NCBI RefSeq assembly: GCF_024223415.1
Contig: NZ_CP100500.1
Source: Escherichia coli
GTDB lineage: Bacteria > Pseudomonadota > Gammaproteobacteria > Enterobacterales > Enterobacteriaceae
Direction: 5' to 3' (one strand)
DNA length: 64,000 nt
In this document: one piece after another, positions 56,263-62,181 of the stretch
How the letters are laid out: each line of letters starts with the position of its first letter
Position numbering within the stretch: position 1 is the first letter of the stretch
Made by a program: the position numbers and the translations under genes
Notes under the pieces: generated by a model
The model's database searches: none
The model's input: only the letters and a program-made list of their open reading frames with translations
What the model was told of the DNA's origin: nothing

Positions 56263-59239
56263 TCCGTGATGAATATCATGTTATTGTTAATGCCAGCGAA
56301 TGTGGCGTTGAATATCCGTTGCGCCGGTCCGGGTCCCGATCATGATGACCGGGACCACAGAGAGGCGATGGTTCTGTCAGAAGGTCACATTCAGCGTGGC
56401 CTGACCGTTATAGCCTTCAGCGCTGCTGCCGCTGACGCTGTGGACATAACCTGCCTGAACGCCCAGGGTGATATTTTCCCGGACACGGGCTTCCAGTCCG
56501 GCCTGCAGGTCCAGTGACGTACCATTCTGTGACGGTGAGAACGTCATGTTACTGCCGGCTGCGGCTGTACCCATGCTCATGTCCCCCCGGGAGCTGAAGG
56601 TGCGGATAACAGAAGGCTGTACCCACCAGTTCACCGGCAGTTCACGCACACTGTGTTTGGCACTGCCGCGCAGGGTGTCACGGGATGAGGTGCCTTTACC
56701 AAAGTTCATATCGTTGTGGCTGCCCAGACGGAAGCCGGCACGCACATGTTGTGCACTGCCATGCCCGAACTTCACATAACCGGCGTTATCCTGGCCGTCA
56801 TCCAGGGAGAGTCCCTGCCAGGTGTACTGCAGTTGCGGCTCCAGCATCAGATTGTCAGTGATACTGAAGGGCAGACCGGTTTCCAGCGAACCCAGCCAGC
56901 CCCAGCCCCGGGCGCGGAAGTCGTTATTGTCCGATGAGGCTTTCATGCTGTGGCGGGTTCCCTGGGCCACAATGTCAGCCCACAGGCCGGAGGCGTTGTG
57001 TATCAGATTCAGGTATCCGCCCAGGCTGCCGGCATCATCCCGGACCGTGCCGGCACGGGAGCCGTCATCATCCTTAACATCAACGGAAGAATGGCCAGCA
57101 GCACCATATACCCCCGCGGTCACAGACATACCGGCAACCTCTGTTCTGAGCAGGTCACCCTCCAGACGGACGAAGCCATAGCTGCCGCTGCTTTCCGGCG
57201 TGGCTCCACGGGCAATACCGCCGTTGTTATCGTGACCGAGATGACCGCCCTGAATGCTGAGACGGACGCTGTTATTTTCACCGCTTACACCGGTCTGATG
57301 GCTGCGGGAGCCTGCCAGAATCCGGTCATAGTCCATTGCCTGTGTCAGCATGGAGGCATACAGGGGGACTTCTTCACGATAAGCATTTTCACTGCGCAGA
57401 TACCAGCTCTCATCACTGTCCCGGTTGAGGGAGTAGTTAAAGGCACCGGCCTGCAGCTTATTCCCCTGGACAAAGGCCCCTTCCTCCGTGGTGGCACCGT
57501 TAATGGCTTCCACCACCTGAATACCCTTACCGCTGGTCGCCAGCCCCGACGCACTGTTGCCGGCGTTCACCAGGTTCAGGATGGTTTTTCCGGTTGCCCT
57601 GCCACCGTCAATGACCAGTCTGTCAGCATTGTTCTGTGCCATATCCGGGCGTACACGCAGGCTGATGGTGCCATTCTGTCCGTTCAGGTTTTTCACTTTC
57701 AGGGTTGCCGGTACGAACTTCCCTGTGCGGGTGGAGGTGAAATGAATCTGTCCGGCATGGCTGAGGTCATCCACCACCGACTGCACCGTGGCGTTATCGG
57801 GAATATTCCAGGTGGCACCAGAGGCGAGAGTGACATTCGTGGGGTCAATGGCACCGTTCAGCACAGTGCTGCCGGTCAGCTTCAGGGCTGTACCGCGCTG
57901 AGCAATGACATCCGTGGTGACGGTACTGTCGTTCAGCGTCAGCGTGCCTTCATTCAGGTTGACGGCTTTCTGGGTGAGTGTGGTGTTGCTGACAGTGAGT
58001 GTGCCACTTCCTGATTTTTCCACGCTGCCGTTACCGGTGAGAGAGCCTCCCTGCAGGAGTGCATCGCCTTCACGGATGGTCAGGGTATCGTTGTTCACCG
58101 TCTTCCCGGAAAGGGTAAGTATGGCGCCGTTATTCAGCGTGGTGGTGCCCGCCAGTGTGCCGCCCCTGGCGGTGAACAGTCCGATTTACCGTGGTATCCG
58201 TGGCCGTATCACCGGCGTTCAGCGTGAATGAACTGCCTTTTTCCAGCATCAGGGCATCCGCCTGACCGCCTCCGATACTGAATGCCTTTCCGTCGCTCCG
58301 GGTACCACTGACAGCGGCACCGGAATCGGCCAGCAGTACACCGCCATTTCCCATGGATACGGTGGTGGCGGTGCCACCGTTGCGGACATCCAGCGTTCCG
58401 CCATCATCCACGCGGGTATTAGTGGCTGTGTGTCCGGTCAGCACATCCAGGCGTCCGCCATTTTCCAGTACGACATTATCAGCTTTACCCTCCACAACAG
58501 AGAATGCTCCCAGGCGGTTTATGCCGGTAACGGTTGCAGCCGTACTGGTAACCAGTGCGCCGCCCTGCTTCAGGGTGACATTCGTGGCTGTACCACCGGC
58601 GTCCACCTGCAGTCTGCCCTTCTGATTAACGGTGGTATTCCCGGCCACACCCCCGTTTTTGACAATCTGCCAGCCGTCACTGTTTACAACAGTGCCAGAC
58701 GCCGTACCGCCGTTGTGCACATACTGGTACCCCCCATTCAGCGTGGTATCCAGTGCGTGACCATGTACAGTCTGGTCGCCGCCGGCATAAACCACAGTGG
58801 TATTTGCCGTTCCTTCAGCAGCCACAATCTGACGACCATTTTTATTGATGGTGGTGCGTACGGCATCTCCGTAGACGGTCTGCCCGGTATCACCATTTTC
58901 CGCATCCGGTCCCCCTTCCGCGCCGGTATTCACAACCGTGTCGGTTGCCACTGCGCCGGATTTGATGGCCTGCCAGCCCTTCTCATTAATGACGGTACCC
59001 GTTGCAATCCCGTCTTCATGTACCCACTGCTCACCGCCGTTCAGAGTGGTGTTCACTGCCTGCCCCTGAAGGCTCTGTCCGCCTCCGGCACTGATAACCG
59101 TGTCTGAAACGCTTCCTCCGGCATTCACTCTCTGAAGACCACCACCGGTGACAGTAGTGTTGTTGGCGGTACCGCCATTTTGTATCCATTGGCCGCCGGT
59201 ATGTAAGCGTACAGCGAGGGCCGTATTGACGGGGATGTG

Positions 59240-60778
59240 TTATTCAGCTGGCAGTGCTATGCGCCACGGAAGCAGTTCGCTGACCCGGTTGACCGGCCAG
59301 TCTGCTATGACGCCAAGCACATGGCGAAGGTAGCTTTCTGGATCCACGTCATTCAGTTTGCACGTCCCTATCAGGCTGTACAGTAGCGCTCCCCGCTCAC
59401 CACCATGGCCAGAGCCGAAGAACAGGAAGTTTTTACGACCCAGACTTACCGCCCGCAGGGCATTTTCAGCGATGTTGTTGTCGATTTCCACCCAGCCATC
59501 GTTCGCATAGTACGTCAGTGCCGGCCACTGGTTAAGTGCGTACGCGAACGCCTTCGCCAACTCTGAGTGTCGCGACAGGGTCTTCATCTTTTCACGCAAC
59601 CAGCTTTCCAGGGATTTCAACAGCGGTTTCGTTTTTCGCTGACGTTCAGCAAGCCGCTGCTCTGCCGGCATTCCCCTTATATCCGCCTCTATGGCGTACA
59701 ACTGACCGATCTGCTCCAGGGCTTCTTCCGTCAGTGCTGACGGGATGCGGACGTGCACATCGTGGATCTTTCGGCGGGCATGAGCCCAGCAGGCAGCTTC
59801 CGTTATCCCACCATTGCGATACAGCTCGTTGAACCCGGCGTACGCATCCGCTTGCAGCACACCGCTGAAGCAAGCAAGATGAGTCTGCGGATGGATGCCT
59901 TTTCTGTCCGGGCTGTAAGCGAACCACACTGCAGGTGCCAACGCTGACCCGGCATTGCGGTCATCACGAACATACGCCCACAACCGCCCGGTCTTCGTCT
60001 TCTTATTACCCGGCATCAGTACCTGGACCGGGGTATCATCGGCATGGAGTTTGCCGTCAGTCATGACATAGCCATGAAGCGCCTCTTCCAGCGGAGACAG
60101 CAGCCGGCAGCATGCATCCACCCAGCCCGACAGCAGTGAACGGCTCAGCTCCACACCTTGCCGGCCGTATATTTCTGACTGGCGATACAGCGGGGTGTGC
60201 TCTGCATACTTCGAGGTCAGCACGCGGGCCAGCAGCCCCGGTCCGGCGATACCCCGCTCGATGGGCCGCGAAGGTGCAGGTGCCTGCACGATGGCATCGC
60301 ACTGAGTACAGGCATGTTTTTCCCGTACCGTCCGGATAACCCGGAAGGCGCTACGCATCAACTCCAGCTGTTCGGCGGTATCCTCGCCCAGATAGCTCAG
60401 TGAACCGCCGCAGTTCGGGCAGCACGGCGCCGCAGGCAACAGTCGCTTTTCGTCACGGGGTAGTGATTCAGGGAACGGCTTACGGATGCGGGTCTGACGC
60501 AACGGACGCTGTACTGCCGGGTCATACACCCTACCAGTCAGCGTATCGCTCTCTTTCTGAAGCTGGTTCAGATCGGCTTCCATTTGTGCGATACGGCGGG
60601 AGACTTTTTCGGAACGACTGCCGAAGTTCATCCGGCGGAGTTTATCCAGCTGCGCCTGCAGATGGTCTATTTCGCGCTCCCGGTTGCTCAGCTTTTCCTG
60701 CAGGGCGTGGATCAGCGCTTCCTGTTCGGCCAGGCGCTGTTTCAGCAGGAAGATGTCGTCAGAAGAGATGTCGTTCAT
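59240..60778 (-). CDS. IS66-family transposase TnpC (512 aa)
   Basis: Leucine-zipper-like N-terminus, Cys cluster (CPNCGG...CTQC) and DDE-type core, the usual IS66 transposase layout. Confidence 0.8.
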
Positions 60779-60827
60779 AAGCCCGTATTTTACCGGGCTT
60801 ATTCTGTGACAACCAGGATAAAGAGAT

Positions 60828-61175: not shown

Positions 61176-61573
61176 CGCTTCAGTTCCTGTATCAGCAGAG
61201 TCAGGAGCTTTTCGCTGACATTGCCATTGAAGCGGAGCGTCCCGTGCCGGAACGTTACCTCACAGCTGATACTGAGGGTTTCCGGGTCCTCTGCGAGCGA
61301 TTCTGGCTGTTCGGCAGCTGCATCGAGAGTCACAGGAAGTAGCTGGGGGCTCTCTGAAGAAGGTAATAGCAGCTTTCCCTCGCGCCATTGTTGTCGCCAT
61401 TTGAACAACAGATTGGCGTTAATGCCATTTTCAAGAGCAAGTTTTGAGATGGATATCCCGGGTTCACAGGAGGCAGCAACGAGCTGCTGTTTAAATTCGG
61501 GAGGATAATTAGGGCAGCCTTTTCGCCTGCCGGGAGTCACATTTTTCTGCATATCTGACACTTTGGTTCCCAC
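61172..61573 (-). CDS. IS66-family accessory protein TnpA (133 aa)
   Basis: First ORF of the IS66-type three-gene arrangement. Confidence 0.7.
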   Translation of the reverse strand: MGTKVSDMQKNVTPGRRKGCPNYPPEFKQQLVAASCEPGISISKLALENGINANLLFKWRQQWREGKLLLPSSESPQLLPVTLDAAAEQPESLAEDPETLSISCEVTFRHGTLRFNGNVSEKLLTLLIQELKR

Positions 61574-62181
61574 TACTTATTTGGTGGACACCACTTTGTC
61601 TAATTCGTCAGATTCTGACCAGACGGTTCAGGCTGTACGCTTACGCCGGTATTGTGAACTGCACCCCAAATGTTGGACATAATCTGACATCTGAAGGTGC
61701 AGTTTATGAAACATTCATTTGAAGTAAAACTTGCCGCTGTAAATCATTACCTGGCCGGTCATGCAGGCATCATTTCTACGGCAAAACTCTTTCAACTTTC
61801 TCACACCAGCCTCTCACACTGGATTAATCTTTTTCTTCTTCACGGTCCTCAGGCACTGGATTGCAGACACAAGCGTAGCTATTCTCCTGAAGATAAACTT
61901 TGCGTGGTTCTTTATGCTCTCGGGCATTCTGAGTCTCTACCCCGGGTAGCTGCCCGGTTTAACATTCCCAGCCACAACATGGTTAAAAACTGGATAAAAG
62001 GCTACCGCAAATCTGGTAATGAGGCCTTTATCAGGCGCAGGAAGGAGAAAAGCATGACCCGTTCTGATGATACCCATGAAAACGAGGCAAACATGACGCC
62101 GGAAGAGATGAAGAATGAGCTGCGTTATCTTCGCGCAGAAAATGCATATCTGAAAGCCATGCAGGAGCATCTCCTGGAAAA

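Follow-up and report, generated by a model that had tools for sequence, protein, structure and literature searches.

An IS66-family element in agn43 of Escherichia coli, identified as an undamaged copy of ISEc8

The analysed window, i.e. the whole stretch of 64,000 nucleotides of Escherichia coli DNA, contains an element which had been predicted to be a complete IS66-family insertion sequence, likely transposition-competent and recently inserted. The locus raises the question of which element this is, and of whether its intactness, its competence and its recent arrival are borne out when ends, genes, target and other genomes are compared. The copy is of an already known kind, and the interpretation given in the original prediction is correct. 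The complete element covers positions 59203-61644 of the window (2442 bp), and its genes are encoded on the minus strand. A span of 59202-61644 had been proposed: its end stands, while its start must be moved to 59203, since the left duplication ends with position 59202. The features that define the borders are the following.

59195..59202, no strand: left 8-bp target-site duplication GCCGGTAT, agn43 sequence, identical to the right copy
59203..59224, no strand: terminal inverted repeat of the tnpC-distal end, starting with GTAAGCGTACAGC
61623..61644, no strand: terminal inverted repeat of the tnpA-proximal end, also starting with GTAAGCGTACAGC
61645..61652, no strand: right 8-bp target-site duplication GCCGGTAT, identical to the left copy

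The terminal inverted repeats are indeed preserved: they are 22 nt long and imperfect, with 18 of the 22 positions matching and the first 13 nt perfect, and they have the form of IS66 terminal repeats, which are imperfect, about 15-30 bp long and start with 5'-GTAA. The 13-mer GTAAGCGTACAGC is found in only two places in the 64 kb, both of them ends of the element, while 0.06 chance matches are expected; two matches were reached in none of 100 shuffles. The duplication, which had been described as perfect, is the same GCCGGTAT on both sides and has the 8-bp length typical of the IS66 family.

The element interrupts a gene and lies next to a second insertion sequence. The original prediction mentioned neither the strand nor agn43 as the target gene nor the neighbouring IS1397.

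56377..63379, minus strand: agn43 (Ag43 autotransporter adhesin) pseudogene, which received both insertion sequences
61655..63086, plus strand: IS1397, IS3 family, 1432 bp, 100% identical to copies annotated as IS1397

The insertion point of the IS66-family element is at codon ~100 of agn43, which also carries a 2-bp frameshift deletion between 58183 and 58184. IS1397, with orfA/orfB and a programmed frameshift, has 25-nt inverted repeats, is flanked by the 3-bp duplication TTG (61652-61654 and 63087-89) and lies 10 bp from the right end of the first element. The surroundings of agn43 are a mobile island of CP4-like genes, including those for a YeeU antitoxin, RadC, an antirestriction protein, YfjI and a GTPase; no tRNA genes were found in the window.

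When positions 59203-61652 are removed in silico, together with IS1397 and one copy of its 3-bp duplication, the resulting 600 bp are 100% identical to agn43. The boundaries of the element are proven to the base, because this excision restores intact agn43 exactly. Many genomes have the uninterrupted gene, i.e. the empty site, with 100% identity over these 600 bp. Two repeated elements only 10 bp apart are a classic trouble spot for assemblers, and it might be supposed that the repeats were mis-joined and an insertion sequence misplaced in agn43. The perfect 8-bp and 3-bp duplications, however, and the exact restoration of the gene upon removal of both elements speak against such an error, as do independent draft contigs, which cross agn43-ISEc8 and agn43-IS1397 junctions and then break inside the insertion sequences. 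The probability left to an assembly artefact is vanishingly small, and this reading is effectively refuted.

The reconstructed target was also evaluated for a REP-like hairpin, which was rejected, as the fold of the sequence is not more stable than that of shuffled sequence (z = -0.5); its resemblance to a palindromic unit is confined to the right half. The two duplications share one base, the T which ends the 8-bp duplication and opens that of IS1397; the observed sequence would therefore result from either order of insertion of the two elements, and no genome was found in which agn43 has one insertion and lacks the other. The spacing of 10 bp could be other than a coincidence if both elements had been drawn to one REP- or palindromic-unit-like structure, or one of them to the fresh end of the other. 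This is considered very unlikely; if true, it would indicate a structure- or IS-end-directed target preference of ISEc8, of a type as yet unreported in the IS66 family.

Three genes are contained between the terminal repeats.

61172..61573, minus strand: tnpA, HTH accessory protein, frame open for 133 aa from a GTG at 61573
60828..61175, minus strand: tnpB, 115-aa IS66 accessory protein (PF05717, NF033819)
59240..60778, minus strand: tnpC, 512-aa DDE transposase (PF03050, NF033517), DNA identical to the CDS of WP_000997962.1

Both the ORF list and the Pfam and NCBIfam coverage bear out that the three ORFs are open and in the order tnpA-tnpB-tnpC, and the assignment to the IS66 family is correct, since each gene matches family profiles near end to end. 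The start of tnpA used in RefSeq for identical copies is the ATG at 61552, which yields 126 aa; the protein matches PF01527 (HTH_Tnp_1) and covers positions 3-113 of the 113 of NF047595 (IS66 accessory TnpA), with 97.4 bits against a cut-off of 74. TnpB covers positions 2-100 of 101 in PF05717 (E 1e-38) and 1-90 of 90 in NF033819 (120 bits, cut-off 50). The stop of tnpA and the start of tnpB overlap in the sequence ATGA at 61172-61175, and tnpB is directly upstream of tnpC, from which it is separated by a spacer of 49 bp. The TnpB of IS66 elements is unrelated to the TnpB of IS200/IS605.

TnpC covers positions 1-283 of the 284 of PF03050 (DDE_Tnp_IS66; E 9e-107) and 5-384 of the 387 of NF033517 (E 5e-137; 457 bits, cut-off 180), and also matches PF13005, PF13007 and PF13817, i.e. 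the zf-IS66, LZ and IS66_C domains. Its zinc finger is recognized by CPNC, starting at residue 120, and CTQC, starting at residue 157, and a leucine-zipper region is present. The motif strings HADDTP, LQADAY, CWAHARR and NIAENALR start at residues 245, 308, 330 and 435: CWAHARR, inside the catalytic core, corresponds to the CwAH-rR motif of the IS66 family, while the other three are candidate acidic-residue strings, which presumably hold the catalytic D, D and E. Among solved structures, none matched TnpC or TnpB by sequence. Neither frameshifts nor premature stops were detected in the transposase genes, and the DNA has 0 differences from a copy annotated with three intact CDSs (proteins WP_001171554.1, WP_000612591.1 and WP_000997962.1).

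Over its full length of 2442 bp the element is 100% identical (0 mismatches) to copies named 'IS66-like element ISEc8 family' by PGAP/RefSeq. The ISfinder naming convention is based on >95% nucleotide or >98% protein identity, and the element falls well inside these limits as judged against the PGAP-named copies. Matches to ISEc8 are present in 4229 of 5426 complete E. coli genomes (78%), and a search with the window element gave an identity of at least 99% at the best place in 3783 records; no other copy, complete or partial, is contained in the 64-kb window. The identification is based on domain content, on the inverted repeats and 8-bp duplication, on the 100% identity, on the published ORF lengths and on the in-silico excision, and nothing was found to contradict it. 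Taken jointly, it is highly probable, on these sequence comparisons, that a full-length, undamaged ISEc8 transposed into agn43 at codon ~100 on an E. coli chromosome.

Competence was evaluated on a sample of 14 copies at different sites, i.e. the window copy and 13 others, with 0-1 mismatches as derived from bit scores. All of the 13 others are flanked by a perfect 8-bp duplication of their own. There are thus 14 near-identical copies, each with its own duplication, and therefore this exact sequence variant has moved repeatedly; no target consensus was detectable among the 14 duplications. That the window copy is likely transposition-competent, as had been proposed, is supported indirectly but strongly. 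The spacer between tnpB and tnpC contains a further feature with a possible bearing on expression.

60777..60802, minus strand: RNA stem-loop AUAAGCCCG-N8-CGGGCUUAU in the tnpB-tnpC spacer, fold computed

The stem-loop has a MFE of -20.1 kcal/mol (z = -3.2), a value equalled by none of 200 shuffles, and its 3' arm takes in the A and the U of the tnpC AUG. The structure may act as a translational brake on tnpC. A simple consensus scan detected no sigma-70-like promoter in ISEc8, and insertion sequences are generally held at very low activity. A copy which is intact yet silent in this cell, for want of a promoter, because of the hairpin that overlaps the tnpC start codon, or through host factors, would agree with these data. 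Low activity, however, does not amount to incompetence, and identical copies with the same features have inserted at many sites, which makes these features compatible with transposition. Silence of the copy is regarded as quite unlikely, and competence is the preferred reading.

The proposal of a recent insertion is supported in a relative sense by the perfect duplication, by the lack of divergence from other copies and by the common occurrence of the empty site. All 5426 complete E. coli genomes lack both ISEc8 junctions and the IS1397-agn43 junction, and the whole 8-kb locus was not found among them. H31, the best match to the 8 kb, was rejected as an instance of the same locus: it contains an unrelated juxtaposition of ISEc8 and agn43 near tRNA-Phe, where ISEc8 has no duplication. 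The independent draft assembly GCA_900482235.1 contains the ISEc8-agn43 junction at a contig end and also the IS1397-agn43 junction. With the junctions in none of the 5426 complete genomes and two agn43 junctions in one independent draft, the insertion is considered real and lineage-specific. In the closest genomes, 99.6% identical over 25 kb, agn43 is intact.

The disrupted allele, with ISEc8, IS1397 and the 2-bp deletion, might instead be older, and have been inherited, or acquired with the island by recombination or horizontal transfer. The location of agn43 in the mobile island described above would be consistent with this, three independent lesions suggest that the gene has been a pseudogene for some time, and both agn43 junctions are shared with a second assembly. 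That assembly, however, may derive from the same strain; the absence of the junctions from the 5426 complete genomes, the 100% identical empty site and the intact agn43 of the closest genomes argue for a young insertion, as do the undecayed duplication and the zero differences between this ISEc8 and widespread copies. An older allele is held to be unlikely, and a recent, lineage-specific insertion is preferred.

The anatomy, the identity, the boundaries and the 8-bp duplication, which is the signature of a staggered cut, are seen in the sequence itself, and a course of events may be proposed from knowledge of the family. The genes tnpA, tnpB and tnpC would be expressed from the tnpA-proximal end, and the ATGA overlap would couple the translation of tnpA and tnpB. 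The DDE enzyme TnpC would bind the terminal repeats (GTAAGCG...) and join the ends of the element to a target cut with an 8-bp stagger, the repair of which would generate the duplication; TnpA (HTH) and TnpB would be required as accessory proteins. Together with IS1397 and the 2-bp deletion, the insertion makes agn43 non-functional. For IS66 transposition, the chemistry (cut-and-paste or copy-and-paste) and the functions of the two accessory proteins, TnpA and TnpB, are poorly characterised (PMC12898284).

Few IS66-family elements are commoner in E. coli than ISEc8, and this copy has little importance beyond annotation; the family is under-studied in its mechanism, to which the window copy adds nothing new. 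At this locus Ag43, a phase-variable adhesin and biofilm factor, is inactivated by the combination of ISEc8, IS1397 and the frameshift deletion, and the lineage-specific ISEc8 insertion could serve as a strain-typing marker.

Related systems share several of these features. IS679 of plasmid pB171, an IS66-family element with experimental characterisation, reportedly requires all three of its ORFs and produces an 8-bp duplication. The three-ORF layout, the GTAA-type terminal repeats and the 8-bp duplication are common to both elements; IS679 is, however, a different element, likened here by description, and the requirement for three ORFs was shown for it and not for ISEc8. ISEc8-like elements and ISEc22 belong to the same family and have the same gene order, and are located in the same types of islands and plasmids, including sites beside agn43 in STEC genomes; they have a lower nucleotide identity to the window element, the 80-90% band containing 1383 records. 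The ISEc8-like element of pEntH10407 encodes proteins of 225, 115 and 523 aa, unlike the window copy (PMC2762410). The ISBst12-group or single-ORF IS66 relatives, e.g. ISDge4, have a DDE_Tnp_IS66 transposase and an 8-bp duplication (PMC12898284) and lack tnpA and tnpB, whereas the window element has both. The published ORFs of ISEc8 in E. coli O157:H7 EDL933, L0013, L0014 and L0015, encode 133, 115 and 512 aa (PMC2762410): the window element has the same ORF lengths, the same size of 2442 bp and the 8-bp duplication, with no difference found from the copies named in RefSeq. Natural insertions of ISEc8 have been published, one of them into stx2a (PMC5359411) and another as a further example (PMC12711010).

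The insertion sequence, named ISEc8 by 100% identity, is made up of the features listed here, the open reading frames being taken from the ORF list of the 57.5-64 kb region of the window.

Features of the ISEc8 element.
61573 to 61172, minus strand: tnpA, 133 aa
61175 to 60828, minus strand: tnpB, 115 aa
60778 to 59240, minus strand: tnpC, 512 aa
59203-59224 and 61623-61644: terminal inverted repeats, 22 nt, 82% complementary, the one pair reported by the repeat finder
59195-59202 and 61645-61652: 8-bp target-site duplication, GCCGGTAT at both positions, abutting the inverted repeats on their outer side

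The inverted repeats are of the GTAA type, and their outermost 13 nt, GTAAGCGTACAGC, are perfect and absent elsewhere in the 64-kb window, where chance alone would give 0.06 matches and none of 100 shuffles reached two. The repeats and the flanking duplication therefore delimit an element of 2442 bp, from 59203 to 61644. The original prediction of a complete IS66-family element with three intact ORFs, preserved inverted repeats and a perfect 8-bp duplication was correct in all these respects, its start (59202) being placed one base early.

The three genes are consecutive and form a single co-oriented block on the minus strand. The tnpA stop and the tnpB start overlap in the sequence ATGA; tnpB and tnpC are separated by a 49-bp spacer. 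A stable RNA stem-loop, AUAAGCCCG-N8-CGGGCUUAU (60777-60802, minus strand; -20.1 kcal/mol, z = -3.2), is found in this spacer, and two bases of the tnpC AUG, the A and the U, fall in its 3' arm; translation of tnpC may be limited or controlled by this structure. A consensus scan of the element revealed no sigma-70-like promoter.

Assignment to the IS66 family was borne out by profile searches. TnpA matches HTH_Tnp_1 in Pfam, TnpB matches TnpB_IS66 (profile positions 2-100 of 101), and TnpC contains DDE_Tnp_IS66 (1-283 of 284), zf-IS66, LZ_Tnp_IS66 and DDE_Tnp_IS66_C; in NCBIfam, the curated cut-offs for IS66-like accessory TnpA, IS66 TnpB and IS66 family transposase are exceeded by all three proteins. 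Megablast comparison of the 2442-bp element against 5426 complete E. coli genomes detected matches in 4229 of them, at a median of 4 and a maximum of 46 places per genome, the best place being at least 99% identical in 3783 records. The top matches are full length, 100% identical and annotated as 'IS66-like element ISEc8 family transposase', tnpA and tnpB. No frameshift or premature stop relative to reference elements was found, because the copy in NZ_CP080260.1, whose three CDSs are annotated as intact (WP_001171554.1, WP_000612591.1, WP_000997962.1), shows 0 mismatches, and the ORF lengths equal those of the published ISEc8 genes L0013, L0014 and L0015 (133, 115 and 512 aa; PMC2762410).

ISEc8 is flanked on both sides by agn43, the minus-strand gene encoding the autotransporter adhesin Ag43, in which a second insertion sequence begins 10 bp past the right end of ISEc8, within the coding sequence:

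61655-63086: IS1397 (IS3 family), 1432 bp, with 25-nt inverted repeats and a 3-bp duplication, TTG

It shares 100% identity with annotated IS1397 copies. In-silico excision of each element together with one copy of its duplication yields the joint ...CCATTGGCCGCCGGTATTGGCCTCGTTATCCGG..., and the 600 bp centred on it match the uninterrupted agn43 of many genomes at 100% identity, at least 80% of this query being covered in 4066. The restored identity therefore settles the boundaries of both elements and indicates that both events were simple insertions. A 2-bp deletion (CC, minus strand), located between 58183 and 58184 by comparison with the intact 1040-aa allele of NZ_CM128606.1, persists after excision and splits the rest of the gene into ORFs of 332 and 573 aa. 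With two insertions and this deletion, agn43 is therefore inactivated three times over. The deletion is a third, independent lesion, a sequencing error of this assembly alone being unlikely, since the same split ORFs are found in the draft assembly GCA_900482235.1. In place of the GGGGTTTGTGT of the closest intact locus (NZ_CM128606.1), the sequence upstream of agn43 has a run of 9 G (63686-63694), which may represent a true variant of the agn43 regulatory region or result from a homopolymer sequencing error.

The agn43-ISEc8, ISEc8-IS1397 and IS1397-agn43 junctions were found in none of the 5426 complete genomes. Exact-protein look-ups revealed the agn43 junctions in a single draft assembly, GCA_900482235.1, two contigs of which break off within IS1397 and ISEc8, respectively, and have these junctions exactly as in the window. 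UDHK01000015.1 (1-4185) begins 112 bp within ISEc8 and crosses the same junction into agn43, with the 332-aa and 573-aa fragments; UDHK01000041.1 (1-6407) contains the same chimeric 122-aa N-terminal Ag43 fragment and ends just within IS1397. This excludes an assembly artefact as the source of the arrangement, which in the searched data is limited to a single strain or narrow lineage; the draft probably represents the window's source strain itself or one very closely related to it. That ISEc8 was, in relative terms, recently inserted, as already proposed from the sequence, is supported by the restricted occurrence of the junctions, by a duplication that shows no decay and by the lack of any divergence from other copies. 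The sequence does not reveal which insertion came first, as both orders give the observed bases.

Insertion of IS1397 is known to be specific for the palindromic units (REP) of BIMEs (PMC1525189). Of its flanks here (61645-61654 and 63087-63110), only the right one, TTGGCCTCGTTATCCGGCC, is similar to half a palindromic unit, namely its right half, and the similarity is high enough for BLAST alignments with IS1397 copies at true REP sites to continue 26-34 nt beyond the IS end; a genuine REP insertion reads GCCGGATGCGACGC-TGGC-GCGTCTTATCCAGCC. The reconstructed agn43 target folds no better than shuffled sequence (z = -0.5). A distance of 10 bp between two insertion sequences is mildly unusual and could stem either from a local DNA structure that attracts insertions or simply from their neutral accumulation in a non-functional gene; a real targeting mechanism shared by ISEc8 and IS1397 seems very improbable.

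Thirteen other chromosomal ISEc8 copies, located at 13 different sites and carrying 0-1 mismatches as judged by megablast bit scores, were sampled. Each is flanked by a perfect 8-bp duplication of its own (TCAGAAAA, GCTTAAAA, AATAAAGT, GATTCAGG, CAATAGAA, GTATGTAG, GTTTACGC, TGTCATCC, GTTGCTTT, GGCGATAC, CTTAATGG, ATTCCTTT and TAATGAAG), with no target consensus among them. This exact variant has therefore transposed many times in recent E. coli history, and such repeated movement, the strongest computational evidence available, makes it likely that the window copy is transposition-competent, as had been predicted. Natural ISEc8 insertions are described in literature, e.g. in stx2a of O157 isolates (PMC5359411; PMC12711010). 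Four of the 13 copies lie inside other insertion sequences (other IS66-family elements, ISEc39 and an IS3-family element); the window copy adjoins IS1397, and nesting in or beside other insertion sequences looks frequent in this sample. A further copy, in NZ_CP148349.1 (3001-5442 of the extracted locus), located beside a tRNA-Phe island integrase, has 11 mismatches and no target duplication (flanks TTAACTTC and GGTTGTGA), which suggests an IS-mediated rearrangement or deletion.

Left of ISEc8, 25 kb of sequence share 99.6% identity with several chromosomes. The following Rfam matches reached the gathering score:

511-591, minus strand: dnaA antisense RNA AsdA
6068-6110, minus strand: ES036
16242-16314, plus strand: ROSE_2 thermoregulator
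30913-31042, plus strand: istR
63398-63634, minus strand: IS102 RNA, which is no insertion sequence but an intergenic sRNA candidate located immediately upstream of agn43

Given the position of AsdA, the window corresponds to the first 64 kb of a dnaA-anchored E. coli chromosome record.

As to mechanism, tnpA and tnpB would be coupled through the ATGA overlap. By analogy with the family, TnpC would act as the DDE enzyme, binding and cleaving the element ends and joining them to the target DNA, whose strands would be cut 8 bp apart; insertion of ISEc8 duplicates 8 bp. TnpA, with its HTH, and TnpB would be required accessory proteins, as they reportedly are in IS679 (Han et al. 2001). Sequence searches found no solved structures matching TnpC or TnpB. 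Motifs binding the beta sliding clamp are described in TnpC and, in some IS66 elements, also in TnpB (PMC3971601), which suggests a link of these elements to replication. According to PMC12898284, the transposition chemistry of the family still awaits sufficient characterisation.

By all sequence evidence the element is an ordinary, already known insertion sequence: it displays every defining feature of the IS66 family that can be tested on sequence and, being identical to ISEc8, constitutes no new member or variant.
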